A DNA stretch of 64,000 bases. Origin: Candidatus Poseidonia alphae (GTDB lineage Archaea; Thermoplasmatota; Poseidoniia; Poseidoniales; Poseidoniaceae). Both the position numbers and the translations under genes were made by a program. Location: positions 39,809 to 103,808 of the forward strand of contig DAVD01000012.1 in assembly GCA_002505405.1 (NCBI GenBank), in the 5' to 3' direction. Below are positions 13,139 through 62,137 of this stretch, piece after piece (the first letter of the stretch is position 1; each line of letters opens with the position of its first letter). The notes under the pieces are model-generated. The model saw only the letters and a program-made list of their open reading frames with translations. It was not told the origin of the DNA and searched no databases.

Positions 13139-13828
13139 GTGATGAATGTTCTTTTCGTCATGGACACCTTCAAAGACAGGGTTCCTCCAACCTCCATCAT
13201 GGACCAAAGGAAAGCGACCGATGTCTTTCATGAGTGGGCTGAAAAAGGCAAGGACATCGGCATGGAAAAAGGCCATGCTGCAAGCGTAGATGTCATGCTA
13301 AATCTTCTTCTTGACAACGTATCAATGCCGTTTTCTGCCGTCGATATTGGTTGTGGAAATGGATGGGTCGTTCGACAACTTTCCAGTCATGAACACTGTA
13401 CCAACGCGTCAGGAGTTGACGGAGCCGTAGCTATGATTGAAAAAGCGAATGGAATCGACCCTAATGGAAGTTATCATCACGGCCAACTTCCTGATTGGAA
13501 ACCCGAGCAACCCGTCGACCTGGTCCACAGCATGGAATGTTTGTACTACCTGCATGACCCGTTGAACTTTCTTCAAATCATACATGATGACTGGATGAGG
13601 GCAGAAGGCAAACTTGTGATTGGGATGGACCATTACGAGGAAAACCCGGCCAGTCATGATTGGCCCAAGTCCCTCAACGTGCACATGACAACCCTCTCGA
13701 TCCAGGCATGGTTGCAAGGAATGAGAGACGCAGGATTTGAGAACGTAAGTGCGATTCAAACCGGAGCGAAGGAAGACTGGGCGGGAACGCTTGTACTGTC
13801 CGGGACTAAGCCTCAGCGTCCTCAATGA
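13139..13828 (+). CDS. Class I SAM-dependent methyltransferase
   Basis: Motif I VDIGCGNGWVV. Confidence 0.55.
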   Translation: MMNVLFVMDTFKDRVPPTSIMDQRKATDVFHEWAEKGKDIGMEKGHAASVDVMLNLLLDNVSMPFSAVDIGCGNGWVVRQLSSHEHCTNASGVDGAVAMIEKANGIDPNGSYHHGQLPDWKPEQPVDLVHSMECLYYLHDPLNFLQIIHDDWMRAEGKLVIGMDHYEENPASHDWPKSLNVHMTTLSIQAWLQGMRDAGFENVSAIQTGAKEDWAGTLVLSGTKPQRPQ

Positions 13829-21700: not shown

Positions 21701-22477
21701 CTCACTCCATACTTCGTGGGGCGGGACCCATGATGGGAGCGTTTCCTGTGTGCATGGATACTCGTCGACGAGAAATGCTCCATGGAATCCCAGGCGGAAC
21801 GAACCAGGGTTGAGCAACTGATGAATGGGGGTGAAGCGTGAAAGAGAACACAGAATTGCCCGTTCTATTTCTGTAAAGTCTGGAGCGTGGTCAAGGATAA
21901 GAATGCCTTCAATATGGGAAAAATGAAACGGGGCTGACTTAGCTGAATTGAGCGCGCTAAGGACGTGTTTTGGAAGTAAAACGGGGAGCGTTCCCCCGCG
22001 CTCCTTTTCAAAGGCAAGCAGGATGTTTTCATAGGTCTCAAGACCTGGGTTATTCTCCCAATTGAACGGGTCGAGAAGGGGACTCAAATGCGCATGAAGA
22101 CGTTCCAATCGTTGTGTTTTCTTCATGCCCCAAGATCCGTGTTCACCGCTATGAAGGAGGGGGAATTTGTAATTCTCACCTGCATCCATGCACTTGCTGT
22201 GAATGCCCATGAAAGAGGATGCTTCGTCGTCAAGAAGGACCGGAAGCCGGAAATCTACGTGCAGCAAGCGAAGAAGTTGATTCATCGTGACGTGTTCTTG
22301 AGGTTGTGCAGCGACGCCCCGTTCGCCAAGTGCATTGAGGGTGGACTTACGGTGTTGCTCTGTTGGATGTACGACCATAATATTGGATTCCGTCGATGCC
22401 GAAAGTCCATCAATCAGCCAATCGGGCAAACCTTGACCAGGGGGGGTGTACTCCGATGTGATGGTATAATCTTCCAC
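18746..22477 (-). CDS. AddB-like subunit: degenerate helicase-like region plus C-terminal RecB-family nuclease with CxxCx5C Fe–S motif
   Basis: No intact Walker A. C-terminal GYADRVDVVVLNK (nuclease motif II), LVIVRDLKTVRG (motif III) and terminal CNYCVLRQSC (Cx2Cx5C, as in AddB/Cas4). The stop TAA overlaps the ATG of the downstream helicase gene (TAATG). Confidence 0.55.
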   Translation of the reverse strand: MEDYTITSEYTPPGQGLPDWLIDGLSASTESNIMVVHPTEQHRKSTLNALGERGVAAQPQEHVTMNQLLRLLHVDFRLPVLLDDEASSFMGIHSKCMDAGENYKFPLLHSGEHGSWGMKKTQRLERLHAHLSPLLDPFNWENNPGLETYENILLAFEKERGGTLPVLLPKHVLSALNSAKSAPFHFSHIEGILILDHAPDFTEIERAILCSLSRFTPIHQLLNPGSFRLGFHGAFLVDEYPCTQETLPSWVPPHEVWSEAHPSWRSNVGRSKNTQFTRVTVDERDHILNSTIELIKHFRSSSQGRILVIDGSVRDRQHLWTQSLGSLGIQWNSNTELLEDQPLFHALLQASRLSQGMSAWGMNALHSVMDSTSLPLKEDMFPELVHPTQEEWRPRPHQEALQSIAQQFHVLGGPGAISRWVGALSRAKPSATERNPEQRRQDLEETQWWLSCMLHAWKPLLMGEDVHMLRYDVEGCSTGEFLPLPPAPKNGPAWMTQFVKWLDFEALEHRQSPYNRSLGTFHAILESIQKIQSSMVRVQSITFDGMDFIDLLTYVGQVTTLSQTKMKTADIEVLTPKEALGLEADLIIFAGLDVDAWPMKTSVVPWLDAKAQLELGMFQTDLLIRQGRHHLRHLLNAAPRIVMFDSSPEDGGGPSAPYAEWLSDVRRSGEWDAMRPAPEFLPPDTYQGTSGLRHWEWVSRELGQGSWLTPVSSWTAEEAGTKRLIRHGHLPRDARQQLGMDLKESIQPREQLNHRPTLTHSFEGVIQSDRKQRQPSLRGLTEGSSLSWSHRTHLLGIDAVRLRPEHASVKAPGVSAAQWPHLGHKEEKVVSLSVDPRPLPAYAPTGLSLNHRFGKIDASLVRKVWSPSRLEKWLHCPRSAWMNQFLNAKSEDEGVSEDVDLRIRGILAHEVEGALLSGHGVNVSGSDLGRIEPLHLGPMGDVGAGWNVILEHLNEHAQWMGRYNAVSVHRTRDLIDATPAEWNDYQETGTPISPGGRLFRMYQSDLTLEHSAPIACEWKTLSEGTSIALDTTDEHEAAASFEMFGYADRVDVVVLNKGQREALTALGILDESSEKTTPMPLDGTPYAARRLVIVRDLKTVRGPQVKQRGLRHLRCLFEELQLALYARAWEVAHPGDRVIGVGATEIGEFTAHYVELDTDIDSVKEELHLGQATGHLPLHFLPLNGEGIHRSPFRTWMYERLKAAQRAVQAAHDGQVNPTPGTHCNYCVLRQSCSVSSFTGGSF

Positions 22478-39529: not shown

Positions 39530-40309
39530 TCATCCGAATGATGGGTCAATGTCCGTGATGTTGGTTGCTTCGGGTGCTGGGAGCATCTGTGAGGCATTCT
39601 CTATGATGTTGCGTACGTTGTCTTCAATGTCCCGGGCGTTTTCCAACAAGTCGGTCAATGGAATATCTAATCCCGTCAATTCGCCAATAGCCTCAACCGC
39701 AATAGCTGCGGCCCGAGCATCTGGATACATTGGGTTTGCTTCAGAAAGAAGGGCGGTGATGTCAATGCCCAAACGGTCACCTTCACCCAATAAGAATCCG
39801 GTAATTCCAGCAACGATGCCTTGCTGAATGGGTTCGATGTCCAAACCCTTCAACCGGTTTCTCGAGGCTTGGATTGAACCAACACCAAACAAAGCTCCTT
39901 CGGTTAATTCTTTTTCCGGTCGAACGAGCCCATCAATGATAATGAGGCGGTCGAAACCACCTTTTGTGAACCACTCAAGAACGGTGGATGCAAAGGTGAT
40001 ATCGGTTTCATTTCCGAACTGTATTTCGGAAGTGAACACGCCTACTCCCTCACCCTGATAAACACGTACAGGATGTTTTGGAATCTCGTTGTGTATGAGG
40101 GCAACGGCAGGGAAATCAGCATGCATGACGGTTCCTAATTGTTTCAATTTCAACTCTTTGATGATGTGAGATGTGGCAATGACCCCGACCATCCCTGCAG
40201 TGGTGAATCCACAGATTGCAACGCCTCCGGTTCTTGGGTCAGCATCTTGGTGCAAAACCAACGCGTACGATTGAAGATTCGCATCCATAGCATTCCCTCC
40301 GGTTTGCAT
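39530..40309 (-). CDS. PAC2-family (proteasome assembly chaperone-like) protein
   Basis: Overall similarity in layout to the second PAC2-like ORF at 53338–54171 (GF..GMVG.IA...I.). Confidence 0.5.
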   Translation of the reverse strand: MQTGGNAMDANLQSYALVLHQDADPRTGGVAICGFTTAGMVGVIATSHIIKELKLKQLGTVMHADFPAVALIHNEIPKHPVRVYQGEGVGVFTSEIQFGNETDITFASTVLEWFTKGGFDRLIIIDGLVRPEKELTEGALFGVGSIQASRNRLKGLDIEPIQQGIVAGITGFLLGEGDRLGIDITALLSEANPMYPDARAAAIAVEAIGELTGLDIPLTDLLENARDIEDNVRNIIENASQMLPAPEATNITDIDPSFG

Positions 40310-40344: not shown

Positions 40345-43300
40345 TCAATCTTCCCAGACAGCCCAGTCTTCCCAGCCTTCTTCGCGGTACCACCAGACGC
40401 CTTCTTCATCTTCCCACCATTCGGTACCGTTCTCGTCCATTGAGATTCCATCGTTCTCTTCGGTTGCTTCTTCAGTCCATTCCTCTTCGGACGAATGTTC
40501 CTCCTCATGGGTGTCTTCAGCACCCGTTTCGAGGCGGGTCTCTTCAGCAGTTGCGCCAAATTGGAAGGCATCAGCACTGCTTCCAAGCATTGAGGATTCA
40601 ATTCCTTCAGGGGCTTCTTCATGCAATTCTTTACCCTCTGCCTTAAGTGAATCAAGAGATTTGGAGGCGTTCAGGTCAAGACTCTTCGGCCCGGGGCTAA
40701 CGTCTGGGGCAGCCATTGCTTCAGCATAGTAATCTTCCTCGTCGTCCTCGTCAAAATCGTCATCGAGTCTTGAACGCATGAAGATGGCTCCCCCAATGGC
40801 GGCAGCCACGAAGATAACAATGCCGATTCCGACCAATACTGGGGTCATGGAACTCGAAGCTCCATCACCTTCATCGTTGCTCTGACCGTCGTTGGTATTG
40901 TCTGTATCAACCACAAGTTTCTCCGAGAGCGTCCACCGTAACTCACCTTCAGTGCTGGCTGTAGGCGTGGTCATGGAATCGCACTGATTGGCTCCGCCGA
41001 ACTCAGAGCATGAGAAGTAAACGACGTAGCCCACACCTTGAATTCCAGGGAACAAACCATCGGATGGCCCATTGCGGATCGGCGAGAATTCCACTTGGAC
41101 TGAGGCCTCCGCAGAAATGGTGAAGATTGGCGCGCTGCCCACACCAAAAGGCGCCTCAAAGGTGACTGGCGGAGGGGTTGTTGGAGTCACTTTCCAGGAA
41201 AACCCGAGGAGCACATCAAACGGATTCGGATTGGTGATGGTGCACGTAATGCGCTCGTCGGTACTGTTTTGCTCCCATGCGTAGGTTGCAGTTCCACAGT
41301 CAATCGTTCCAGCCAGCGTTGCATCCGGGAATGTCGTTTCGTTGCTGGTGTTGGAGGAGGAGTTGGTTTGATTTTCTTCTACGGCAGGTGATCCTTCAAA
41401 GTCGATCATGACCGCCATACCTTCGGTGTAATAGTACGGAGTGAACGTGTCCAGATGAATGTGTAAGAATCCACCGTATGCGCCAATTCCAGAGAGTTCC
41501 ATCTCGTTTCCACGCACCTCTCCAATTCCCGCTGATACCTCTGAACCATTTTCATCGTTCGCAATCCATCCAACGACCATGTTTGCAAGCAGTACCTGTT
41601 GTTCGGCGATGTCTGCATTGACGAGGAGAACCGTTGAGAATGATGCGTTCTCAGTAAGGAGGATTGGCTCGACGGTCGTGAAGGACACATCAACGACGCC
41701 AAAAGCAGAAGATTGGTTGAATGCAGGGGTTAGTGGGCGGTCTATGAGTCCTCCTTGGCTTCCTTCGTATGAAACTGAAAGGGTCATTTGGCCAAGCGCT
41801 TCAATTGGGCCCAGAGTGGTGAGGTTAGGGATTGAAAACACCGCTATGCCTGATTCATTTGTTGTTTCAACGAGCGTGAAGTTATCGTTTTCACCGAGAA
41901 TGTTCAATGTTAAATCCGCTCCAACAACACCCGAACCGTTCTCATGCAAATGAGCGGTAACATCCAACGCCCCATTCTTCTTCAACAAGACATGTGAGGT
42001 GGTTTCATCGCTTGTAAATCCAAGATAGGTCACGTCAAGCGAGGTGGTTAACGCCGAGTCGTTTCTGGTGAACACTGGGCCAAACGCTGTCGCATCGTAT
42101 GAAAAATTACCAAACTGGTCGACGCCAACAACGGTGACGAAGTAAGGCGTTCCATCAAGGAGGGCATTGCCTTCATTGTCAACGCTCAGCGTGGAATTAA
42201 AGACTGAAGCCGCTGTTGTCATGGAGGCACTCATTCCGTTAAGTGAAGTGAAATTCACAGCACTGACGTAAATCTGATGTTCATTCACGGATGAATGTCC
42301 CGGGGACCAAGTGATGTCCAACGCGCCTCCAGAATCGCTGGGGCGGTCTACAGCCGTCACGTTCGGTATGTAGGACTGAGGGGGAGGGTAGGGGACGGTG
42401 ATTGAAAGAGGGGCGGAGAGATTGCTGGTCACTCCGTATTGATGGACACTGCGGACATAGTAGTCGTATTGTTCACCGGGGGAGAAATTCATATCGATCG
42501 TGAAGTTGCTGATGCTGCTTGAATAGGTATCAAGGAGATCTAAGTCTTGATTCTGGCCCACCCTGTAGATGATGAATTGAAGCAGGTCGTCACCAAAATC
42601 GGTTTGATTCTGCCATCCAAGTTCCAAACTCGTGCTGTTCAGTTGATTGATTTGCAATATCGGAGTTGGCGGTAGGGCGATATTAGGTGCGCCTTCGGTG
42701 TAGGCAATGGTGGGGTTGGAAATCTCAAAACTACCGTTTCGTGTTGAGGAAAACAGCAGAGGTACGTTTAACGTTCCTGAACCACCGGTCATCTGTTGAT
42801 TCAATACATTGGTGAGATTACGAGAGGGATGTGGATTAAGATTCACCTGAAATTCTGCATCATATGTAATGTTGAGATCTGTAAAGGTGAACATGCCCCC
42901 AGCCAATGTGCTCAACGAAAAGTTGACCGGAGACATTTGAATGCCGTATCCATCGGTAATCCACGGCCAACTGAAACTCATAGCGCTCAACTGCGTGCTC
43001 AAGTTGTTGACTGGGTCGAGTATCTGAAGCGGTGCGAGGCCATTTGAGCCGTTTCCAGCATAGCCTGATGCGGTGTAATCAGCCATTGAATTATGGTCAA
43101 CATCGTAACCAATTTCGTGCCAGGCACCTATGAACACCCCGTGCTGTGAACCTTCACCTGCGACGACAATGTGTTCGCGTATACCATCGCCATCAAAGTC
43201 TCCGAAATCGATGGACTTGGGCATGGTCCAGGGTTCCAATATTGCTGAAGCAGATGAGTTAACTCGTCCCTTGTTGCTGCCGTAAGTACGGAAATTGTAA

Positions 43301-44682
43301 GCAGTAAAGTTGCCATCTAATGTGCTCGAAATGCCATCGCCTTGGGTCAACTGAGGAAGGAGGAGCGAACTGTCCATGTCGTAATCGTGATCGATGATGG
43401 TCGCATTGGTGAGGTCCAAGAGACCGTTGTGATTCTCCTCATTCCAAGATGTAAGGCGATTTTCAATTGAGCGGTGTCCAGTGCTACGTGTGGCAATGAA
43501 ATCGAGGTCTCCATCGTTATCAAAATCGCCGTACACTGAATCCGTTCCGAGTCCATCAAAGCGCGTCACCAGCTCTGCAAAGGCCCCGTTTGGCGAATAC
43601 TGCAGTTGGATGCATTGGCCTGTGGTATCCACCACGACCAACTTGTATGGGTTCAATTCACCATTAAACCGAGCCAGGTACATTGCCGTCAAAGAGGCTG
43701 TTGTAGTGCCTTGAGGAGTTTCGTAAACAACGGCCGAATCTACGCTTGAAAACCCGTTGGACTTGGTGCTAAATTCTGCAATATCAACTCCTCCACCGGT
43801 TCGGATGGTTACCAAGTCTGCATATCCATCATCGGCAACATCTCCAATATCCAAATCAATGACTGAAGAGGGGAGCGTAAAATTGGCCCGGGTTGGAAAG
43901 TTACCTGTGGTGCCGTTGTAGATGTGGATGCAGAGCAAACTGTCCACCGGTGCATACGTGACCACGTCTTCAAAGGAATCACCGTTCAAATCGGCAACCA
44001 TCACCCGGGTAGCATTCGTACATGTTGGAACCCATGATGTGTTGGAAACGCCCGTAGTATTGGTATAACTCATGACCGTGAAGGCGGTCCCAACTCCGGT
44101 ACTTGCATTTGAGGACGAAAGAAGGATGGCGTCTGCCAGACTGTTGTTTTCGATGTCACCAATGGCCGTATCGGTTATCGGCCCCAATGGAAAGAAGCCG
44201 CCAGTCAAAGTAGGTTCAAACCCAACGGTCATTCGAGCATCGGTTATTGCAGAACCGTAAGGAAGAAGGAAGTCGGAAGTGTTGGTACTGGCTTGGATGG
44301 GCCCATTTGGTTCGATGGCTAATGCAGATGAGTTGTTTCCATCTGCAAACATCGTCTGCAATCCAAAGTCTCCGTAACCGGTTTGATTGAATTCCCACTC
44401 ATTCTCTCCGTTTTGGTCGAGGTCCAGCCAAACCTTACCCGGCGACTGGGTTGTTCCAGAATCGGGAGAGAGGAAGAAAAGAGACTGTTCGATCGTAGTG
44501 TTTCGCTCCAAATCAAACCCAATTGAGGTGTGTGTGCCCCCGTTCATGGTGATTGTTTCTTGGGCTGTACCCGTGGAAAAAACAGAAATGGTGGTGGATT
44601 GGGCGCTAGCAAACATAACTGACCAGCCAGGGCCAACCATCATCAAAACAAGCAGGGTTCCCAGAATTTGACGGGATTTCAT
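40345..44682 (-). CDS. Giant secreted cell-surface protein with FG-GAP/VCBS-type Ca-binding repeats and fibronectin-III-like domain, C-terminal TM anchor and acidic cytoplasmic tail
   Basis: Signal peptide. Repeated DxDxDG loops (DFDNDGDLDF, GDFDGDGIRE, VADLNGDSFEDV). Fn3-like LELGWQNQTD...YDYYVRSV. A TM helix IGIVIFVAAAIGGAIF followed by an Asp/Glu/Trp-rich tail. Confidence 0.6.
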   Translation of the reverse strand: MKSRQILGTLLVLMMVGPGWSVMFASAQSTTISVFSTGTAQETITMNGGTHTSIGFDLERNTTIEQSLFFLSPDSGTTQSPGKVWLDLDQNGENEWEFNQTGYGDFGLQTMFADGNNSSALAIEPNGPIQASTNTSDFLLPYGSAITDARMTVGFEPTLTGGFFPLGPITDTAIGDIENNSLADAILLSSSNASTGVGTAFTVMSYTNTTGVSNTSWVPTCTNATRVMVADLNGDSFEDVVTYAPVDSLLCIHIYNGTTGNFPTRANFTLPSSVIDLDIGDVADDGYADLVTIRTGGGVDIAEFSTKSNGFSSVDSAVVYETPQGTTTASLTAMYLARFNGELNPYKLVVVDTTGQCIQLQYSPNGAFAELVTRFDGLGTDSVYGDFDNDGDLDFIATRSTGHRSIENRLTSWNEENHNGLLDLTNATIIDHDYDMDSSLLLPQLTQGDGISSTLDGNFTAYNFRTYGSNKGRVNSSASAILEPWTMPKSIDFGDFDGDGIREHIVVAGEGSQHGVFIGAWHEIGYDVDHNSMADYTASGYAGNGSNGLAPLQILDPVNNLSTQLSAMSFSWPWITDGYGIQMSPVNFSLSTLAGGMFTFTDLNITYDAEFQVNLNPHPSRNLTNVLNQQMTGGSGTLNVPLLFSSTRNGSFEISNPTIAYTEGAPNIALPPTPILQINQLNSTSLELGWQNQTDFGDDLLQFIIYRVGQNQDLDLLDTYSSSISNFTIDMNFSPGEQYDYYVRSVHQYGVTSNLSAPLSITVPYPPPQSYIPNVTAVDRPSDSGGALDITWSPGHSSVNEHQIYVSAVNFTSLNGMSASMTTAASVFNSTLSVDNEGNALLDGTPYFVTVVGVDQFGNFSYDATAFGPVFTRNDSALTTSLDVTYLGFTSDETTSHVLLKKNGALDVTAHLHENGSGVVGADLTLNILGENDNFTLVETTNESGIAVFSIPNLTTLGPIEALGQMTLSVSYEGSQGGLIDRPLTPAFNQSSAFGVVDVSFTTVEPILLTENASFSTVLLVNADIAEQQVLLANMVVGWIANDENGSEVSAGIGEVRGNEMELSGIGAYGGFLHIHLDTFTPYYYTEGMAVMIDFEGSPAVEENQTNSSSNTSNETTFPDATLAGTIDCGTATYAWEQNSTDERITCTITNPNPFDVLLGFSWKVTPTTPPPVTFEAPFGVGSAPIFTISAEASVQVEFSPIRNGPSDGLFPGIQGVGYVVYFSCSEFGGANQCDSMTTPTASTEGELRWTLSEKLVVDTDNTNDGQSNDEGDGASSSMTPVLVGIGIVIFVAAAIGGAIFMRSRLDDDFDEDDEEDYYAEAMAAPDVSPGPKSLDLNASKSLDSLKAEGKELHEEAPEGIESSMLGSSADAFQFGATAEETRLETGAEDTHEEEHSSEEEWTEEATEENDGISMDENGTEWWEDEEGVWWYREEGWEDWAVWED

Positions 44683-49597: not shown

Positions 49598-50788
49598 TCA
49601 AACGCTGGAATCGCTGACGGCTACTTCCGATAAAGAAGGCCTCATAACGGTGATTTTAACGCTCAAAACCCAATCGTTCCCCGGGTCGGGGTCTGGCTCT
49701 CCAAATATTGAATCGGGGTCGGATTGTTGAGCAACAACCGACCAAATCCATTCGCCTTGGCCGGTTCGGTTTCCTCGGTCACCCAACAAGAAATTCAACA
49801 ACTCTTCCTCTGAATCCGATACGAACAAACCTTCTTCACCTGGTGAATTCATTTCATCAAGCGACATTTCAGCCGTTGCGGGTTCATTGGTGGTGTAATT
49901 TCCGGCTTGGGTTTGAGCAGTTTTTCTATAATTATCATCAACGATATGGAGGACCAGTGAGAAGTTATCGTGTGGAGGTGCAATGTCTCGATCGAGTTCC
50001 AACAAAGCGTCAAAGGCGATGATGCGCCCGTTTTCGCCTGGTGTCAGATTCCCTTCCCATGTCTGACCCTGTTCAAGATACTCGTCCCAGGAAATGTCAA
50101 TGGTTTCAGTGACCCAGACAACGTTGAACGTACGTGTTGTGATGTTCAATTCAAACGATTCTATCGCAAATGCTCCATCGCTGTCATCGATTCGAAGAAT
50201 GCCATGAATCATGCCTGAAGTTGTTGTATCAAAGAGAACTTCGGGCGTTAAAGCGTCCAAATCATTGAGTGGGTCTCCGTCTCCATTGGTATCGACCTTG
50301 ATGTCAAAGTCCCAAGAGAAGGCCATTTGCCCGCCTTCCGGGTCGTAAGATTCCGAGGCATCGAACAGGGCTGAATCTCCAGCGCGAACCGATGTGGGCA
50401 TGCTGATGTTGATGACCGGCGCTCCGTTAACCAAAACAGTCGCAACGGCATCGTCGGTTCCGCCTTGGTCGTTGGTAACGGTCAAACGAACGATGTATTG
50501 CCCGTGATTTGGGAACGCATGAGAGGTGAAACCCACTACGGTTTCGGCGGTTGAGCCGTCACCAAAGTCCCAACTGTAGCCGGTGATGATTCCCTCAACA
50601 GCGGAGGAGTCTCGAGCGTCCAAGGTTACCATTTCGCCTTCTTGAATGAGGGTTGGGTAGGCTTCCAATGTGGCCCGAGGAGAAACCGTTGTGTCCAAGG
50701 CTTGCAAGCAACCGGACAGCAATGAAATGAGAACAAAGCCAACGGCAAAGGCGGTTGACACCTTTGTTCGCTTTAGGGAATGCTTCAT
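49598..50788 (-). CDS. Lipoprotein with PKD domains
   Basis: Lipobox LLSGC after MKHSLKRTKVSTAFAVGFVLI. PKD motifs YSWDFGDGS and FSWDFD. Confidence 0.55.
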   Translation of the reverse strand: MKHSLKRTKVSTAFAVGFVLISLLSGCLQALDTTVSPRATLEAYPTLIQEGEMVTLDARDSSAVEGIITGYSWDFGDGSTAETVVGFTSHAFPNHGQYIVRLTVTNDQGGTDDAVATVLVNGAPVINISMPTSVRAGDSALFDASESYDPEGGQMAFSWDFDIKVDTNGDGDPLNDLDALTPEVLFDTTTSGMIHGILRIDDSDGAFAIESFELNITTRTFNVVWVTETIDISWDEYLEQGQTWEGNLTPGENGRIIAFDALLELDRDIAPPHDNFSLVLHIVDDNYRKTAQTQAGNYTTNEPATAEMSLDEMNSPGEEGLFVSDSEEELLNFLLGDRGNRTGQGEWIWSVVAQQSDPDSIFGEPDPDPGNDWVLSVKITVMRPSLSEVAVSDSSV

Positions 50789-50834
50789 GTTAGAAACGAC
50801 CGGCCCATCCTTTCTAACTGTTCGGTTGAAGTGA

Positions 50835-51224
50835 TTAAACAGAAGCCCTGTTTTCATGCCCGTCGAAGACGACGGTTTCGGATATATCCCCTTCGACCAT
50901 TGCATCTTCATAGGGGTCTTCAACCTCTGACACATCATGGATTTCAACCTCATCTTGATGGGTAAATGACGGTGATGTACCTTCACTGAGCAAGTCTTCA
51001 ATTTGAGCCTGACTGGCATCATAAGGCGCTGGAACGCTGTTCGCTAAGGGCTCCAAGACCGGGTCGTCTTCTTCGAACAGGGCGAGGGCTTCCGTTGCGC
51101 GTTTTTCCTGAGTGTGATGGAAGGTGGTCATGTCCTCCTCCAATACCGCAGGCTCTACAACAGGCGTATTACCTACAGAATCGGTTCTTCCTATGACTTG
51201 ATTCAACCAACTTCGAAGCCCCAT
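50835..51224 (-). CDS. Small acidic hypothetical protein
   Basis: 129-aa ORF, highly acidic. Confidence 0.3.
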   Translation of the reverse strand: MGLRSWLNQVIGRTDSVGNTPVVEPAVLEEDMTTFHHTQEKRATEALALFEEDDPVLEPLANSVPAPYDASQAQIEDLLSEGTSPSFTHQDEVEIHDVSEVEDPYEDAMVEGDISETVVFDGHENRASV

Positions 51225-51290: not shown

Positions 51291-52106
51291 ATGGGGCAAG
51301 ACCTTTTCCAAGGCGAAAAAGTTCTGGCCTTTGACCTTGAGACCACCGGGGTATCAACACAAGAGGACAAGATTGTCCAACTCGCTTTGATCGGCAGTGC
51401 TATCGATGGAACAGCGGTCAACTTCGAACGCTTGGTCAACCCAAAACGCTCCATACCCTATGATGCAAGTCGAATCCACGGGATTTACGACAGAGATGTT
51501 CGCAGCTTACAAGGGTTTGAAGCCGTGGCTGACGAGGTCGCTGAATTGATTGAAGGCGCTGTTTTAGTAGGCCACAATGTCAGAAAATTTGATTTCGCCA
51601 TGCTAGAAAAGGAATTTCTCCGGCTCGGTAGACTTTGTCCGCAACCTAAGGCGATTATGGATACGCTTGAACTGGTCCGGAGACTCAAGATTCCAAGACC
51701 TCACAATCTTGGCTCACTTTGCAGCCGGCACGGAATTCGTCTGGAAGCCGCACATACTGCCGCTGCAGATGCTGCTGCAACGCTGTTGCTGTTTTGGCGA
51801 CTCTCCGTTGAACATTCTCCAGCGTTCCGAAGGTCAATCCCCGAACTTGAACGATGGATTGTTCACGGCGAAGGAAACACGGACGCTTCGGAACTTGGCA
51901 GAGGTTTGAACGACTTGGAACCGGTGGATTCCTTAGGAAAAGTTCGTCGCGATGGTGCCCATTACGTTGTCTCTTTTGGCCGTCACAGAGGAAAACATCT
52001 TTCTGAAATTCAAGCAATAGACCCCGGTTATGTCGGGTGGTTGCTTTCCCCTAATGGAATCGAATGCGAAGATACGCGGCAATTGTTGCGCGAACATCTA
52101 CGCTGA
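51291..52106 (+). CDS. DnaQ-like DEDDh 3'-5' exonuclease with about 90-aa C-terminal extension
   Basis: Exo I FDLETTG, Exo II VGHNVRKFD, Exo III HTAAADAAAT. Confidence 0.7.
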   Translation: MGQDLFQGEKVLAFDLETTGVSTQEDKIVQLALIGSAIDGTAVNFERLVNPKRSIPYDASRIHGIYDRDVRSLQGFEAVADEVAELIEGAVLVGHNVRKFDFAMLEKEFLRLGRLCPQPKAIMDTLELVRRLKIPRPHNLGSLCSRHGIRLEAAHTAAADAAATLLLFWRLSVEHSPAFRRSIPELERWIVHGEGNTDASELGRGLNDLEPVDSLGKVRRDGAHYVVSFGRHRGKHLSEIQAIDPGYVGWLLSPNGIECEDTRQLLREHLR

Positions 52107-53282
52107 GAGGGGCTCGTACGGTTCGCCGTCCGGCAAAGGATTCCACGGAAGAACATCACACCACGGACCAACTCGCCAGGAACGTCGAGCCGTCATGATC
52201 GACCCGAGAAACAGCGGCCCTTGGTAGCCTTGAGTTCGCAATTCTTCGAGAGCATCTTTTCCACGACCGTCGAATTTTGCTGAAACTCGGTTGCCTGTTG
52301 GGATTGCTCGTCCGGTCTCATCCAATGGTTCGCAAAGTTCCACAACGCCGACACCGCTGACGTCGTCGTATTGATGCAAAAGGACGACGGCATCGCTGAA
52401 ATCATCTTTGTGAAGGGTGCCGGACTCTTTGCGCCAAGTCCACCAGTGCGGGCACCACGCCTTCCAATCGCAGAACCCTCCACAACTGTCCGGTCCAGGG
52501 GTTGGCTCCATGGGAATGGGGGTGGCTTGCGTTGCCTCCCAAGCAGCGTATGCGTCTTCGAGGACGCTTGGCCCTAGAGCAGCCCACTTGCTTGCTGTTT
52601 TGGTGTACCATCCTTCAGTACGAACCGGTGGCGCGCTTGGATTGTTAGCGAGAAGAATGTCCCGATACATTCGGAGTTGGCGATTTACTTCGGTCTTCAG
52701 TTCCTTTGTTGGTGCGTTGCCAGTTTTTAGGTCTGCAACCAGCCAGCCTTTCATCGTGCCATCCTCGGCCATATCTGCGAACAATAAATCCAAGCGGCCC
52801 ATTAGACGGCCGTCACTGGTTTTGAGTTCGCCCTCTACGGCGATGGTGAGTTGTTGCAATCGCTTCCAAAGGGCAACGGTGATGTCTTCATGGGGCAGTT
52901 CACGCGCCCCTAAGTGGTCAAGCAAGAGAATAACGCCCCCTCGTTGTTGTTTGAGCGCTTCCTTCCATTTGTCTTCTTTCCAATTGGGGCGTCTGGGCGT
53001 AGCCATGAACACTGCCTTTTCCTCTTCCCAACGTATCTTGAGAACACGCTCTGCCTCACGGGGCAACCATCCTGCTTCCTTATCCCCGCGTCCTGAAAGG
53101 TCCAAGTTGAGCAAATCTTCAATCGAAGCGTGGACTGCGGTTCCAAGCGAGGCCGCCATTCCCGCCTTCCGTGGGAGGCGTTGTCGGCTGAGCCAATACA
53201 TCCTCGGACAAGTCTCGTAGCGATTCCATGCGGAAGGCGAAAGGCTGTGTGGACGTGGCGAAGGAGTTTCGTCAGCGCTCAT
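52098..53282 (-). CDS. Cas4-like/RecB-family PD-(D/E)xK nuclease with Fe–S Cys motif and C-terminal extension (standalone, no cas neighbours)
   Basis: N-terminal SAWNRYETCPRMYWL. Motif II GRLDLLF, motif III WLVADLKTG, QLRMY, then CGGFCDWKAWC. Confidence 0.65.
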   Translation of the reverse strand: MSADETPSPRPHSLSPSAWNRYETCPRMYWLSRQRLPRKAGMAASLGTAVHASIEDLLNLDLSGRGDKEAGWLPREAERVLKIRWEEEKAVFMATPRRPNWKEDKWKEALKQQRGGVILLLDHLGARELPHEDITVALWKRLQQLTIAVEGELKTSDGRLMGRLDLLFADMAEDGTMKGWLVADLKTGNAPTKELKTEVNRQLRMYRDILLANNPSAPPVRTEGWYTKTASKWAALGPSVLEDAYAAWEATQATPIPMEPTPGPDSCGGFCDWKAWCPHWWTWRKESGTLHKDDFSDAVVLLHQYDDVSGVGVVELCEPLDETGRAIPTGNRVSAKFDGRGKDALEELRTQGYQGPLFLGSIMTARRSWRVGPWCDVLPWNPLPDGEPYEPLSA

Positions 53283-53337: not shown

Positions 53338-54171
53338 TTGAAGGCGCACGGTCCGTTAGGGGAACTCATGGATGGCCCAAGTCTTCGAATCAATACCATT
53401 ATTGAACAAGAGAATACCATGGTTATTGCTTGCTTCCCAAGTGTTGGAATGGTTTCCAGTATTGTAGCTCACTACCTCATCGACCATTTGGAATTGGAGT
53501 TCGTCGGCGGTCTCGTCGATGACCGCCTACCTACCCTTTCTTTGATTCAAGAAGGTGTTCCCTTGCCCCCAATCCGGGCCTATGCTGGGAAGCCTCAGTG
53601 CAGCATTGATGGCTGTGACCAGGTGATTCTGCTCATGAGTGAAATGGTTGTTCCCGAACCTCTCGTTCACAAGATCGTATGGGCTTTGTTTGAGTGGTCC
53701 AAGGAGCACAAAGTATTGGCTGGTATCGTTATTGATGCATTCGCTAAGGCGGGCATGAAGAGCAATATGGACGGTGTTGAGCCCGTTGTCGAATACGAAG
53801 ACACAGACGGTATCGATGTTGTCGGGATCGGATGCAACGAGACCGTTCGAGATATGCTCAAAGAAATGAATATCCCTCTGCTCCAACAAGGAGTCATCCG
53901 TGGAATGAATGCTGGCATCCTAAGCGAAGCAACCCGCAGGGGCCTGGGCACCATGTCCATCATGGTCGAAGCTGACCCTCGTTGGCCCGACGCTCGTGCT
54001 GCAGCAGTACTCATTGAGAAACTGAATACGCTTCTCCCAAGCATTGACCTTCCAAACCAGCCACTGATCGAAGAAGCTGAGAAACTTGAAGCACAACTCA
54101 AAGCACTCATGGACAGTGCTGGAAAAAGCGAAGACAGTTCTCCCAGTACCAACGCTATGCTTTACGGTTGA
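53338..54171 (+). CDS. PAC2-family (proteasome assembly chaperone-like) protein, second paralog
   Basis: VIACFPSVGMVSSIVAHYLIDHL matches the PAC2-type N-terminus. Similar to 39530–40309. Confidence 0.5.
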   Translation: MKAHGPLGELMDGPSLRINTIIEQENTMVIACFPSVGMVSSIVAHYLIDHLELEFVGGLVDDRLPTLSLIQEGVPLPPIRAYAGKPQCSIDGCDQVILLMSEMVVPEPLVHKIVWALFEWSKEHKVLAGIVIDAFAKAGMKSNMDGVEPVVEYEDTDGIDVVGIGCNETVRDMLKEMNIPLLQQGVIRGMNAGILSEATRRGLGTMSIMVEADPRWPDARAAAVLIEKLNTLLPSIDLPNQPLIEEAEKLEAQLKALMDSAGKSEDSSPSTNAMLYG

Positions 54172-54176
54172 ATTCA

Positions 54177-56414
<2,238 letters not shown>

Positions 56415-57454: not shown

Positions 57455-60400
57455 TCAAAGGTGAGTTTCGTCGATGGATGTAAATTCACCCGGGCCACCT
57501 TTCCGGAGTCGAGCGAAGAACATCAATACGGCAATACCAAACAATGTTACAACAAGCATGATGGCATTGATGTTATCGTTGCCTGAATCCGCTTCGACCC
57601 CTTCAAGACTGTCCGGAATACCATCACCATCATCATCCATATCAACGGTCAGCCAAGAGGTCACTCCCTCCGGGCAGTTGAGGTCGTCCGGCTGGGTATC
57701 TCCATCGGTGTCCAAATAAGCACATCCATCCAATGGGAAGGCATCTTTCACGTCGGTAAATCCGTCGTTATCATCATCCAAATCGTAAATATCTGGGCCA
57801 CAGGTTCGCCCAAGTGTTGAGTCGAACCAAGTGTCAGACTGACATGTGCTCAACCAATCGAGGTCGGTATCAAGCAATGTATATTCAATATCAACAGAGG
57901 TTGAGGATGACAACCCATAGGAATCGGTCGCTGTAACTTCAACAACATAGAACCCTGCTGTTAGATCGGTGATGTTGAACACTGGTTCGTTTCCATTCTG
58001 GAGGACAGCGTTGCCTGAAACATCGTAAACTTTCCATGAAATGATGATGCTTTCTACGCCGTCGATGTCGTCTTGAACGTGAACTGCAGCTCGAATAGAA
58101 TCGCCTTCCATCACACGTCCACCAGCCATTGGTTCGGTAAGTTCAGCGGTTGGTGCCTGATTGACAACGAGTGAAATCACAACGTTACGGTCCGCTGTTG
58201 CAAGTGATTCAACAAAGATTGAGGCTGACGGGGACCCTGCGGAGGTGGCGGTAAAGGATGCTGCAGTTGCAGTAGAATCGGATGAATCCGTTATCATTCG
58301 AACGATAATTTCAGCATCTATGGTCGTTCCCATAAGGTGCATCTCTGGTAGAGATGAGTTTGGGAATTGAACGGTGAACTCAGCATTCAGTGGAATTCCA
58401 TTGCGCTGCGCGTCAAGAACAAAGGTACGGTAAGCGTTGAAACTGCCGCCTTCCGAGACTTCAATTCCATTATGACTTCCATCCACTAGGTCAACATGAG
58501 CACCGTAATTCTCAACCAGACCGAGAAGATTCGTATCTTCGAACCGAACATCGTAGCCCTCTGTCGAAAGTGAGGTGCTGGCGGTAATGGAACTGGAACG
58601 AACGACGAGGGGCGTTGCCTGTTCGTCAGCGTCAAGATGCAAACCTAGCCCTACTGCGAATTGCTCAATGGTCACGTTGGTAAGGTACAGAGGATCCAAA
58701 GAACGCCCGTGATGGAAAACTACGGCTGTCCCTGAACCATCGCCTGAAAGGTGAACGTTCGTGATGGTTCCAGCACTTCGGTCAATATCGATTCCTGGTG
58801 CGCCTGTGAGATTGATGTCTTGGAGGTTGAGTGCTTTGTTTTCTGAGCCAATGATTCCTCCAAGTCCTCCTGTCACTCCGTTGACGTCAGAAAGGGCAAA
58901 GGTTCCATCGATTGAACTGAGAGAAATGAGGGACCCTGTTCCGCTGAATGCATGTGCATGGACTCCGTCAACCTGACCTGTAACTCCGGTCAAGTCCAAA
59001 CCTTGTTCAATTCCACCGCCCAGCGTTATCTTTGATACGGAGAGGGAGGTTTGACGCGCCCACAACCCAGGTCCACCGCAATCGGAAAGCGTCACGTTGG
59101 ACATCGAGAAGATACCGGTTGATTGGAACACCCTGAGGCAGCCGTTTCCTGCGTCTTGAAGGTGGGAGTCTCTCAATTGGACCTCGGCATTGCTACCTGT
59201 TTCAACGGTGATGAGGCTCTCCGATGCGGAGCGGGCGAAGAACACGCCGTTAGCACTGAAAGAGCCGTCACCGTTGATGCGTACGGCAGGAGCGGCTTCA
59301 ACAACTGTTGCACCCGCAAGGTCAATTGAGGCCCCTGCAGAATCTCCGAGAATGAGGCCACCCCAACGTGCACCTGAACCGGTTGATGCAAGCGTTGCTT
59401 CATCGACATCCATTGTACCGTTCACGGTAATGGTGGCGTCATTGGACACGCGCAGCGATACGCCATCTTGAACGGTCATGGTCGCATCTTTTGATAGGAT
59501 AAGGGATGATGAGAGCGTGTATGGACTCCATTGCTTTTCAAGAATCAACCAATCGTTAACGGTTCCAGACGGTAGAGTTGAGGCCATGAAGGTGTGTTCA
59601 AACGATACGTTCGTATCCCAAGAGATGAAATCGAGAAGACCGTTTGCTGAAATGGTTAACATCACTGTTCCGTACCAGTTTTCACCTGAACTATCAACAA
59701 CAAGCGATGGGTGGGATAGGAAGCCATACCCGTTACTGTTGGTTTGAGTGGTTGCTCCTGCAACAGAAATCAACGCACCTTCAACCGGAGACCCTTTGTC
59801 GAGAACCGTCACGTATGCCTGAGAAAAGGATTCGAATTTTGCATCGTTTAGAACCGACACTTGAGTCGGAATTCGCCCTTCGTTTTGGCGAACCTCGCAA
59901 TAAGGCTGTAGTGCAAGGCTGCCGTCGAAATGAATTCCATTAACCTGTTTTTGAACGGCACAATTCCACGTTACATCGCCGTCAATTGTCAAGAATGACT
60001 CTTCATCAACGACGCTTGATAGCGCTCCAAGGCGTCCTTGAGGAGATACAGAAAGCGAGGGTGCTTCAATTGTACTTGCTTCACCCTCTAACACGCCAGT
60101 GCCGAGAAGAGAAACGGATTCTGAAGCAGGTACGATGAGCACCGTATTCATGAGCGTCAACTGGGCTCCGTCTGAAATCGTAAGACTGCCCGTAAGTTGG
60201 TGGGATGCTCCGTCGGGGCGAGGGCCTAAGATGACCACTTTGCTCGATGGAATGGTCCAATCCCCGGCTGGAATGATTGGAACCTGAACGGACTGACCGA
60301 TGTAGCCGCCCGTAAGAACAACACGAACACCGGCTCCTTGGTACGTAGCATCGATGAGGGAGCCTGAAGATGAAAGAGGGAGCGTCAGTGCGCCGTTTGA

Positions 60401-62137
60401 ATTCGCTACGAATTCAAAGCCATGGACTACCACATTGGCCTCAATCGGTTGGCCGTCCAAATCAGTGAATGTCACGGGGGTTTCTTCCAAAAAGTAAGAT
60501 TCAGCCGTGTTAATTGTTGGCGAGCTTTCGCTTCCATAGTAGAGCACCCCTAGACCCGAGGCATCACCGGCTCCTTGTGCGGTGTTGATCGGTTCAAAGG
60601 ATCGAACGGTAGCGGTAGCGGTGGAGGTCTCGAGCAGGAGGGCAACATCGTGAAGTGTACCTGTTAAGTTGATCGCTTGAAGATGTGACTGTCCAACCAA
60701 ATGGACGCCATAGGTCTGTGCAAGTGTGGAAATGTCCTCTGCTGTAACATCACTGTTGATGAGATGCAGGCCTGCCGTTGAGCCTTGGTGGGCATTCAAC
60801 GAGGCAATCGTTGCAACACTTCGTTCCATTCGCATTCCGATGGAGGTATTCTCGGTGTTCATTTCACCAAGGTTGAGGTCAGCGTACCACGCGTTCACAC
60901 CAACAGAGGAAGAATCCCCCGATTGAAAGGATTTGTGAATGGAAATACCATCCCAGTCGTGTACACCACCCAATGCGTCGATTCCCGTAGATTGAACGTC
61001 CCCCAACTCCACACCGACCGCAGAAAGGAGAGAGGTTGGCGTTTGGATGTTAATTCCGACGCCATCGGTGACCACGTTCGAGTTTGCAATGTCCAAATGT
61101 CCAGCCCCTGACGCAAAGATTGCTTGCTGACTGGCTGTGATTTGGCTGTTTGTTAGTTCATGAGTGCCGCTTCCTGAGAGCGACATGCCTCGTGAAGTAT
61201 TGAGAAGGTTCAATCCATCATAGGTGCATTGTCCCGAGCATTTCATGTCCACCACGTAGCGGGAGTCCTGGTGGGTAGCATTGAATTCAACATCGTGAAG
61301 TTCAAACCCTGAAACCGAGGTCCCTAACAGCATTCGCTGTCCAGAAAAAACGGCTTGATTTATTTTGAGATCGTCTGAATTCGCAGCATCGATAGCGATG
61401 GCCAGGTCGGCTCCCACGACATTTGAGATGTTGATGGCGGCCCCTGGGTTAGCGGCGATACCAACCGCAGCATCATCAAGTTCAAGCCCGTCCACATGAA
61501 GCGAGCCACCGTGTGCCCGGACGCCAATGCCAGACTGTGACACGTCAAAATCGGTTACAATCGCAGTCCCAGATGAATCAAGTCCAACGGCTGTATCGGT
61601 CACCTCAGCATTGCTCAAGGTCAGTGACCCTGAATCAAGGTAGACCGCTTCATAGTCCATACCTTGAGCAGTCAGGTCGTCAACAATAGCGGTGCCCCCA
61701 TGTACGGCAATACCACGGTATGCATCGTTTAGGGTGAGGCCGTTAGCATTCAACGTCCCTTCTACGCGAAGTGCTGCTGAAGCGTTTGAAATCGAAACCT
61801 CGTCCAATGTTGCCGTTCCGGTGGGCGTTATAACAAGGCCAATCCACAGTCCTTGACCGTGTGAGCCTTGGGTGAGCGGGACTGTTGATGAGAAGAATGA
61901 GGTTTGGTCAGCATCCAAGGTCCCCTCAACGGTTAACGAATACGTTTTGGCGTCAACCGTTGTTCCGGGTTCAAGCGTCAGTGTAGCTCCTTGGTCAACG
62001 GTGACGTTTCCCTCAAGGGTAACGGTTCCTGACCAAGTCGTGTTAACGGTGACCGTGCTGTCTGCTGCAGGGACCATTGGAACCCAAGCCATGGTGACCA
62101 TTAGGGAGATGAGGAGAAAGGCGGGTAGGCTTCGCAT
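57455..62137 (-). CDS. Giant cell-surface protein: signal peptide, long right-handed parallel beta-helix repeat region, Asp-rich Ca-binding (thrombospondin-type-3-like) module, C-terminal TM anchor
   Basis: Signal peptide MRSLPAFLLISLMVTMAWVPMVPA. Dozens of about 22-aa G/N/T/S-rich beta-helix turns. DLDDDNDGFTDVKDAFPLDGCAYLDTDGDTQPDD and DMDDDGDGIPD. TM helix AIMLVVTLFGIAVLMFF followed by ARLRKG. Confidence 0.6.
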   Translation of the reverse strand: MRSLPAFLLISLMVTMAWVPMVPAADSTVTVNTTWSGTVTLEGNVTVDQGATLTLEPGTTVDAKTYSLTVEGTLDADQTSFFSSTVPLTQGSHGQGLWIGLVITPTGTATLDEVSISNASAALRVEGTLNANGLTLNDAYRGIAVHGGTAIVDDLTAQGMDYEAVYLDSGSLTLSNAEVTDTAVGLDSSGTAIVTDFDVSQSGIGVRAHGGSLHVDGLELDDAAVGIAANPGAAINISNVVGADLAIAIDAANSDDLKINQAVFSGQRMLLGTSVSGFELHDVEFNATHQDSRYVVDMKCSGQCTYDGLNLLNTSRGMSLSGSGTHELTNSQITASQQAIFASGAGHLDIANSNVVTDGVGINIQTPTSLLSAVGVELGDVQSTGIDALGGVHDWDGISIHKSFQSGDSSSVGVNAWYADLNLGEMNTENTSIGMRMERSVATIASLNAHQGSTAGLHLINSDVTAEDISTLAQTYGVHLVGQSHLQAINLTGTLHDVALLLETSTATATVRSFEPINTAQGAGDASGLGVLYYGSESSPTINTAESYFLEETPVTFTDLDGQPIEANVVVHGFEFVANSNGALTLPLSSSGSLIDATYQGAGVRVVLTGGYIGQSVQVPIIPAGDWTIPSSKVVILGPRPDGASHQLTGSLTISDGAQLTLMNTVLIVPASESVSLLGTGVLEGEASTIEAPSLSVSPQGRLGALSSVVDEESFLTIDGDVTWNCAVQKQVNGIHFDGSLALQPYCEVRQNEGRIPTQVSVLNDAKFESFSQAYVTVLDKGSPVEGALISVAGATTQTNSNGYGFLSHPSLVVDSSGENWYGTVMLTISANGLLDFISWDTNVSFEHTFMASTLPSGTVNDWLILEKQWSPYTLSSSLILSKDATMTVQDGVSLRVSNDATITVNGTMDVDEATLASTGSGARWGGLILGDSAGASIDLAGATVVEAAPAVRINGDGSFSANGVFFARSASESLITVETGSNAEVQLRDSHLQDAGNGCLRVFQSTGIFSMSNVTLSDCGGPGLWARQTSLSVSKITLGGGIEQGLDLTGVTGQVDGVHAHAFSGTGSLISLSSIDGTFALSDVNGVTGGLGGIIGSENKALNLQDINLTGAPGIDIDRSAGTITNVHLSGDGSGTAVVFHHGRSLDPLYLTNVTIEQFAVGLGLHLDADEQATPLVVRSSSITASTSLSTEGYDVRFEDTNLLGLVENYGAHVDLVDGSHNGIEVSEGGSFNAYRTFVLDAQRNGIPLNAEFTVQFPNSSLPEMHLMGTTIDAEIIVRMITDSSDSTATAASFTATSAGSPSASIFVESLATADRNVVISLVVNQAPTAELTEPMAGGRVMEGDSIRAAVHVQDDIDGVESIIISWKVYDVSGNAVLQNGNEPVFNITDLTAGFYVVEVTATDSYGLSSSTSVDIEYTLLDTDLDWLSTCQSDTWFDSTLGRTCGPDIYDLDDDNDGFTDVKDAFPLDGCAYLDTDGDTQPDDLNCPEGVTSWLTVDMDDDGDGIPDSLEGVEADSGNDNINAIMLVVTLFGIAVLMFFARLRKGGPGEFTSIDETHL

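Follow-up and report, generated by a model that had tools for sequence, protein, structure and literature searches.

Cas4 proteins are reported to be 5'–3' exonucleases of single-stranded DNA (ssDNA) that carry Fe–S clusters, and Cas4-like proteins of the family pfam12705 are not linked to CRISPR; solo Cas4 genes are mostly inherited vertically in order-level lines (PMC5704561). A report on the M. mazei solo-Cas4 describes activity on double-stranded or supercoiled DNA (PMC12501428). Here we describe a gene for a Cas4-like nuclease, open reading frame (ORF) B, and the DEDDh exonuclease gene that converges on it, ORF A, in a 64,000-nucleotide (nt) stretch of Candidatus Poseidonia alphae (contig DAVD01000012.1), which is called the window throughout. 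The two are probably separately transcribed, vertically inherited chromosomal nucleases of Poseidoniales (marine Group II archaea) that stand in inherited synteny and form no dedicated two-gene machine.

ORF B shares with pfam12705 Cas4-like proteins and archaeal solo-Cas4 (PMC5704561) a PD-(D/E)xK core that contains the QhxxY motif, an Fe–S module of four cysteines, a location outside CRISPR loci and a largely vertical, order-level inheritance. Unlike them, it is 394 amino acids (aa) long with an added OB-like barrel, has a C-x3-C-x5-C cysteine spacing, does not reach the Cas_Cas4 model (PF01930) and is restricted to Poseidoniales and a few relatives of high GC content. The nuclease domains of AdnA/AdnB, AddB and Dna2, which act on ssDNA and have a RecB-type fold braced by an Fe–S cluster, are among its best structural matches; unlike these, ORF B stands alone, and an AddAB-like pair is encoded separately in the window. 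Druantia DruK and the Argonaute-associated ACE1 have a similar nuclease core, and in DruK-like relatives, too, about 100 aa extend beyond it at the C terminus, but ORF B has no DruE, DruA or prokaryotic Argonaute (pAgo) partner, its chromosomal position is conserved, and hhalign detects no similarity between the C-terminal domains. ORF A has in common with E. coli ExoX and the DnaQ-family DEDDh exonucleases the DEDDh motifs and domain and a small PF20600 C-terminal domain; unlike E. coli ExoX, it has a 55-residue linker and an archaeal host, and it scores far under the ExoX and DnaQ equivalog cutoffs.

Both enzyme types are already known, and non-CRISPR pfam12705 proteins and vertically inherited archaeal solo-Cas4 are in the literature (PMC5704561). 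In publications on Poseidoniales nucleases, AddAB and MutSL we found nothing specific to the ORF A/ORF B pair. What is new here is modest: the identity of both C-terminal extensions, the fusion to an OB-like domain in a family specific to Poseidoniales, how deep the synteny reaches and a junction that tolerates insertions.

A convergent pair with overlapping ends

51291..52106, + strand: ORF A, ExoX-like DEDDh 3'–5' exonuclease, 271 aa (Pfam, NCBIfam and PDB sequence matches)
52098..53282, − strand: ORF B, Cas4/AddB-type Fe–S PD-(D/E)xK nuclease with C-terminal OB-like domain, 394 aa (Pfam, AlphaFold2 (AF2) and Foldseek)
52098..52106, no strand: 9-nt overlap of the 3' ends of ORF A and ORF B (direct reading of the sequence)

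The ORF list places the two genes tail to tail, with the overlap exactly where the first-pass annotation, made from the letters alone, had put it: ORF A ends in TGA at 52104–52106, and the TAG stop of ORF B is seen as cta at 52098–52100. In a greedy ORF set the window is 96% coding, and the gaps at its six convergent junctions are −23, −29, −9, +1, +5 and +16 nt, with overlap in three of the six. Because it is typical of these junctions and within their routine range, the 9-nt overlap is trivial, and we reject it as a meaningful signal and attribute it to the compactness of the genome. ORF A and ORF B are not co-directional, as the co-transcribed genes of an operon would be, and because they converge they have no shared transcript. 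Terminator-like matches all lie within or upstream of coding sequence, with none at the ORF A/ORF B junction, and a scan with a sigma-70 promoter model, which is not applicable to archaea, returned no promoter-like sites.

ORF B, a predicted Cas4/AddB-type nuclease with an OB-like barrel

52449..53246, − strand: nuclease domain of ORF B, aa 13–278 (Pfam and conserved alignment columns)
52146..52400, − strand: C-terminal beta-barrel of ORF B, aa 295–379 (secondary structure of the models)

The Pfam model PDDEXK_1 (pfam12705) matches ORF B over the whole length of the profile (positions 1–247 of 247; E 2.9e-21; 77 bits against a threshold of 22) and leaves an extension of 116 aa. Two alignments, one of 36 close homologues and one of 13 sequences that include distant ones, agree on the conserved columns H51, E150, D165, D184, K186, Q202, Y206, C25, C267, C271 and C277, with C25 nearly invariant in the broader alignment owing to one N-terminally truncated sequence. 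Judged by these columns, D165, D184-x-K186 and Q202...Y206 correspond to the RecB/Cas4 motifs, including QhxxY, and are joined by the Fe–S cysteines. One N-terminal cysteine (C25) and three C-terminal ones (C267/C271/C277) fit the four-cysteine pattern of a 4Fe–4S cluster, which is predicted here; the spacing is C-x3-C-x5-C in the ORF B clade and C-x2-C-x5-C in distant family members. ORF B has no fused SF1 helicase or helicase-like domains, consisting of PDDEXK_1 and a beta-barrel of about 85 residues only. The earlier description of a standalone Cas4-like Fe–S PD-(D/E)xK nuclease with an extra C-terminal domain therefore holds.

An AF2 model built from the 36-sequence alignment (predicted local distance difference test (pLDDT) 88, predicted template modelling score (pTM) 0.81) was matched by Foldseek to AdnA/AdnB, ACE1, AddB, Dna2, MGME1 and the Cas4 protein SSO0001, with E-values of 1.6e-6 for AdnA/AdnB (6ppu_A), 5.5e-5 for ACE1, 6.1e-5 for 4cej_B and 1.2e-4 for 5eax_A. 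A sequence search of the PDB gave a single spurious match (0.044). There was no match to Cas_Cas4 at E <=0.01 in Pfam and no NCBIfam model was reached; a DruK-like relative of ORF B does match Cas_Cas4. With its 394 aa, ORF B has about double the length of the Cas4 chains among its Foldseek matches (about 190–206 residues). By analogy with characterised Cas4, AddB and Dna2 enzymes, ORF B most likely cleaves ssDNA at, from or near a 5' end, with a metal site formed by D165, D184, K186 and Q202/Y206, and the predicted 4Fe–4S cluster on the four cysteines would brace the nuclease domain.

The C-terminal domain has the order b1-b2-b3-helix-b4-b5 both in the full model and when modelled alone (pLDDT 86.8), as assigned by DSSP; this strand–helix order fits that of an OB fold. 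Its listed Foldseek matches in the PDB are weak (best E 4.3e-3, TM 0.43–0.48), although nearly all are to OB folds. The domain has an isoelectric point (pI) of 4.66, against 7.7 for the nuclease domain, and values of 4.3–6.2 in relatives. From the models it appears to be an OB-fold-like beta-barrel; because it is acidic, we call it only OB-fold-like. It would probably hold either a DNA strand or a partner protein. After the barrel comes a tail motif, GxWCDVLPWxPIPD (aa 372–385, about 52128–52169), most positions of which are invariant in the 36 close homologues and which could be a docking motif. A C-terminal domain common to ORF B and its DruK-like relatives from Druantia was considered and rejected (hhalign probability 0.1%).

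ORF A, an ExoX-like DEDDh exonuclease

51327..51794, + strand: DEDDh catalytic domain of ORF A, aa 13–168 (Pfam RNase_T coordinates and motif positions)
51972..52046, + strand: ExoX-like C-terminal domain of ORF A, aa 228–252 (PF20600)

ORF A was described at first pass as a DnaQ-like DEDDh exonuclease with a C-terminal extension, and the profiles agree. RNase_T matches with an E-value of 5.5e-27 (95.8 bits, Pfam), and the motifs D15-x-E17, H95-N-x4-D101 and H155-x4-D160 supply all of the catalytic residues (D15, E17, D101, H155 and D160). Within the 103 aa that extend beyond this domain, PF20600 (ExoX-like_C) scores 27.5 bits, barely above its cutoff of 26.5, and positions 167–215 of the NCBIfam ExoX profile NF005937 align to aa 220–268. 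The ExoX-like C-terminal domain is also present in precomputed annotations of most Poseidoniales homologues of ORF A. Both extensions, which the first-pass annotation had singled out for profile comparison, can thus be given an identity: the ExoX-like domain PF20600 in ORF A and, from modelling, the acidic OB-fold-like barrel in ORF B.

At the level of the DnaQ family ORF A exceeds the NCBIfam cutoff (TIGR00573, 81.3 bits against 71.5), and it falls below the equivalog levels of ExoX (NF005937, 40.5 against 202) and of dnaQ_proteo (77.3 against 222.7). Its sequence matches in the PDB are the exonuclease domains of PolC, DinG and Pol III epsilon; to our knowledge, Pol III alpha is lacking in archaea. 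The most likely activity of ORF A, by analogy with ExoX and the DnaQ-family DEDDh enzymes, is removal of nucleotides from 3' ends, and its ExoX-like C-terminal domain may be a docking module.

A narrow family in an old block of genes

A pattern scan in which each GTDB species was represented by one genome found relatives of ORF B at 392 loci. The best 80 of these loci have identities of at least 68% and are almost all labelled Poseidoniales or unclassified archaea. The named best matches of ORF A and ORF B are proteins of metagenome-assembled genomes (MAGs) of Poseidonia, Poseidoniaceae and Poseidoniales, with more distant ones in Thalassarchaeaceae. An exhaustive HMMER search with ORF B over 1.84 billion cluster representatives gave 123 matches at E <=1e-3, mostly fragments of the same family; full-length divergent members have identities of 48%, 45% and 39%, beyond which there are only weak PD-(D/E)xK matches (E >1e-8). 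The family of ORF B is thus a narrow one, yet lineage-wide in Poseidoniales. One of the best 80 loci is in a bin named Verrucomicrobiales (L022, NZEQ01000040.1), with an ORF B 79% identical and a typical Poseidoniales block; this contig of the 'Verrucomicrobiales bacterium' MAG is probably mis-binned.

53338..54171, + strand: PAC2-family (proteasome assembly chaperone-like) gene, divergent from ORF B (Pfam PAC2 2.6e-31)
54177..56381, − strand: LigA, bacterial-type NAD-dependent DNA ligase (NCBIfam equivalog, 535.9 bits against a cutoff of 369)
50835..51224, − strand: small ORF for an acidic 129-aa product, divergent from ORF A (ORF list; overlaps the extension of the PKD ORF)
49598..51022, − strand: PKD-domain protein, 474-aa ORF (Pfam PKD_4 3.3e-26)

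We compared 88 related loci by tblastn, extending matches to the stop codon. In 78 of them a convergent ORF A follows ORF B, at a distance of no more than 100 nt in 64 cases. A 22-nt overlap is one extreme of the junction and a 4.3-kb gap the other: among the 78 convergent loci, 42 have overlapping tails, 22 a gap of 0–100 nt, 10 a gap of 100–1000 nt and 4 a gap of 1.4–4.3 kb. Two of the other ten loci have a full 5-kb flank and no ORF A; the remaining eight have short flanks, and three of these, with more than 1 kb, still show none. In at least 14 loci the two are separated by unrelated genes. As judged from sequence alone, these include genes for membrane proteins, for a PKD-like protein, for subunits resembling those of formate dehydrogenase and for a surface protein with thrombospondin-like repeats, as well as one that resembles hemA. 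In a Thalassarchaeaceae locus, one additional gene without a Pfam match occupies this place.

At the junctions of L044, L045, L046, L049, L055, L057, L062, L068, L083 and L087, the inserted DNA measures from 0.4 kb up to more than 5 kb. In some Poseidoniaceae lineages the ORF B/ORF A junction behaves as a local insertion hot spot.

The PAC2 gene is the divergent neighbour of ORF B in 84 of 84 loci and in 4 of 4 distant loci, and is tied to ORF B more strictly than ORF A is. Most loci also keep the PKD protein that lies past ORF A, and LigA lies near the pair in Poseidonia-like loci and in the four distant ones (called as two pieces in L088). The block LigA–PAC2–ORF B–ORF A–PKD is kept in the most distant members, at 37–49% ORF B identity and 40–69.5% GC. 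The adjacency of ORF A and ORF B is therefore ancient and mostly kept. Because PAC2 is the stricter neighbour and PKD is conserved at least as well as ORF A, the synteny here is not function-specific; and because the block also holds functionally unrelated-looking genes, insertions are tolerated and the genes are convergent, adjacency is weak as evidence of function.

The block of marine Poseidoniales with 40–52% GC is also kept in L085 (ENA ERZ26167216, a 3.0-Mb contig of 69.5% GC) and L086 (63% GC). Within the block ORF B evolves fastest: it is 37% identical to its counterpart in L085, where ORF A reaches 51% and LigA 58%. A gene of 114–124 aa takes the position of the 129-aa acidic ORF in L001, L003 and L085, the likeness being one of position and size only.

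These comparisons bear on two points of the first-pass annotation. It had reasoned that the pairing would mean little if ORF B were a widespread housekeeping 'RecB-family exonuclease' of haloarchaea whose neighbour varied freely; ORF B did prove to be lineage-wide, in Poseidoniales and not haloarchaea, but its neighbour is not free. It had also raised co-occurrence of the pair in other genomes and viruses, and the pair recurs in genomes, whereas no close relative of ORF B was found in the virus collections IMG/VR and INPHARED.

Alternative explanations for the pair

In some CRISPR systems prespacers are trimmed by Cas4 and by DEDDh/DnaQ domains, and the pair could be the remnant of such an adaptation module, a Cas4 and a DEDDh prespacer-trimming nuclease left behind when the array and cas1/cas2 were lost. 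ORF A indeed matches the PADLOC model 'Cas DEDDh' (5.5e-34). However, the window has no CRISPR-like repeats by Tandem Repeats Finder, and no 16-mer occurs in it three or more times or twice within 20–120 nt. No Cas-family match was found by Pfam among its 36 larger ORFs, 11 of which have no match of any kind and beside which the smaller ORFs lie outside the scan, and there are no cas genes in the Pfam-annotated contexts fetched from ORF B relatives. The first-pass observation of neither an array nor cas genes stands over this range, and the missing Cas_Cas4 and NCBIfam matches of ORF B and its doubled length also speak against a Cas4 of this kind. We reject a CRISPR link, and the remnant explanation, to which we attach almost no probability, is refuted in practice.

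The pair might instead be an anti-viral module, or derive from a virus or mobile element, with ORF B degrading invader DNA in the manner of DruK or ACE1 and ORF A as an accessory. ORF B matches the PADLOC model of DruK (35.8 bits, E 1.2e-9), ORF A matches PDC-S48 besides the Cas-associated DEDDh model, ACE1 is among the top structural matches of ORF B, and RecB-family phage nucleases have the same fold. The nearest relatives of ORF B outside its family with similar length and a C-terminal extension, P0324-like proteins from metagenomes (about 22% identity), are each encoded immediately after a protein of about 1600 aa (L094 4–6994; L096, L099 and L100). The one tested, in L094, is the DUF1998 helicase DruE (PADLOC 1.8e-246; MrfA Zn-binding domain), and DruA follows; L099 has a BrxC/D ATPase instead. 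With DruE upstream in the locus tested and DruA or BrxC/D adjacent, we take the P0324-like relatives to be Druantia DruK-type nucleases, in agreement with the association of Cas4-like nucleases with COG1205/DUF1998 helicases that Hudaiberdiev et al. describe (2017, PMC5704561). ORF B itself has none of this company. Among the 36 larger ORFs Pfam found no DruE, DruA, pAgo, restriction–modification or other defence match, and PADLOC, run on ORF A and ORF B only, matched just their generic catalytic cores (aa 143–281 of ORF B for DruK, to whose C terminus ORF B shows no profile similarity). No helicase or MZB match adjoins ORF B in the window or in the loci of its relatives, where its neighbours are PAC2 and ORF A. 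Unlike patchy defence islands, it is present at 392 loci with a constant position in every locus examined, and core-genome status is largely indicated. A scan of IMG/VR with the ORF B family alignment gave 5 matches only, all weak or partial, and INPHARED tblastn gave none for ORF B and, for ORF A, only matches of less than 30% identity, among them phage homologues of the same two-domain layout; fold matches of ORF B in BFVD reflect the generic RecB-family fold only. We saw neither an integrase among the scanned ORFs nor long repeats in the window, whose GC content is even. We therefore reject a viral origin and regard the anti-viral or viral-derived module proposed at first pass as very unlikely.

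13806-18809, − strand: UvrD-helicase/UvrD_C/PDDEXK_1 protein, 1667 aa (Pfam)
18746-22477, − strand: protein with C-terminal PDDEXK_1, 1243 aa (Pfam)

The first-pass annotation also proposed a two-polarity end-resection module. In a fuller form, the pair, possibly with LigA, would be a functional unit in which a 5'-end/flap nuclease and a 3'–5' exonuclease trim both ssDNA polarities at gaps, flaps and breaks and LigA seals them, a bacterial-style toolkit under selection. E. coli ExoX-type exonucleases act in excision beside 5'–3' exonucleases, the convergent pair persists as ORF B identity drops from 96% to 37% and as GC varies between 40 and 70%, and LigA lies within a few kb in both Poseidonia-like and distant loci. 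All of ORF B (426 columns) also aligns to Dna2 in Foldseek with a TMq of 0.44, but the root-mean-square deviation is 18.3 Å. Against a unit stand the convergent orientation with no common transcript and an overlap of ordinary size, a PAC2 neighbour that is stricter than ORF A in every locus alongside a conserved PKD gene, the unrelated insertions in at least 14 loci and the absence of ORF A within 5 kb in two more. End resection also has another candidate. An AddAB/AdnAB-type machine is the usual means of double-strand break resection, and the 1667-aa and 1243-aa ORFs, which overlap by 64 nt on the same strand 30 kb from ORF A and ORF B, look like such a bacterial-type helicase–nuclease in an archaeon. 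An end-resection module is not borne out by these results, and a functional unit of any kind seems to us rather unlikely.

Separately transcribed nucleases in inherited synteny remain the probable explanation, and several observations weigh against it. The frequency and closeness with which ORF A follows ORF B, over such divergence, exceed the expectation for unlinked genes and leave room for a functional link, and LigA, a 5'-type nuclease and a 3'–5' exonuclease in one block make a suggestive combination. The acidity of the barrel and its weak fold matches also render uncertain the DNA-binding role that could be assigned to it. On the explanation by inherited synteny, the tail-to-tail position would come from an old compact block of a giant beta-helix protein, PCC, LigA, PAC2, ORF B, ORF A, a small ORF and PKD. 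ORF B would act on ssDNA near 5' ends and ORF A would remove 3' nucleotides, and the two would most likely trim flaps, gaps or ends in repair or replication, possibly before sealing by LigA; a pathway common to all three is plausible, and their polarity, substrates and pathway are drawn from analogy.

A more specific and decidedly improbable proposal is that ORF B is a helicase-less Dna2-like 5'-flap/5'-end nuclease, its barrel gripping the displaced strand or an RPA/PCNA-type partner, and that with ORF A and LigA it makes up an order-wide strand-trimming-and-sealing toolkit. If true, the toolkit would serve marine Group II archaea in excision or in the processing of flaps or gaps, and would have stayed in one chromosomal block since before the family-level splits.

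The pair belongs to a stable, partly bacterial-style set for DNA maintenance, comprising LigA, the AddAB-like pair, the ExoX-like exonuclease and the Cas4-like nuclease with its OB-like domain. A defined, lineage-specific nuclease family is now available for biochemical testing; otherwise the finding is an ordinary one.

Neighbouring genes and contents of the window

57455-62137, − strand: giant, probably surface-exposed protein, 1560 aa, weak beta-helix match
40345-44682, − strand: giant, probably surface-exposed protein, 1445 aa, FG-GAP and fn3 domains

The ORFs of two neighbours are probably longer than the genes. Most tblastn alignments of the PAC2 protein start at query residues 8–11, and its real start is probably near 53368. 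The PKD ORF is probably over-extended at its 5' end, with a true gene of about 395 aa that starts near 50785: homologues have 367–418 aa, most tblastn alignments begin at about query residue 80–100, and the ORF has an internal methionine followed by a lipobox-like LLSGC. In several relatives, a protein sized like the 1560-aa one stands at the upstream edge of the block.

The window is ordinary chromosome, with an even GC content of 0.48–0.54 and genes for a chorismate-utilising enzyme, an Obg-like GTPase, phosphatidylserine decarboxylase, MCM, GatE, PurM, Trm1, two tRNAs and a HAD protein in addition to LigA. A second PAC2-family paralogue is encoded at 39530-40309 on the − strand.

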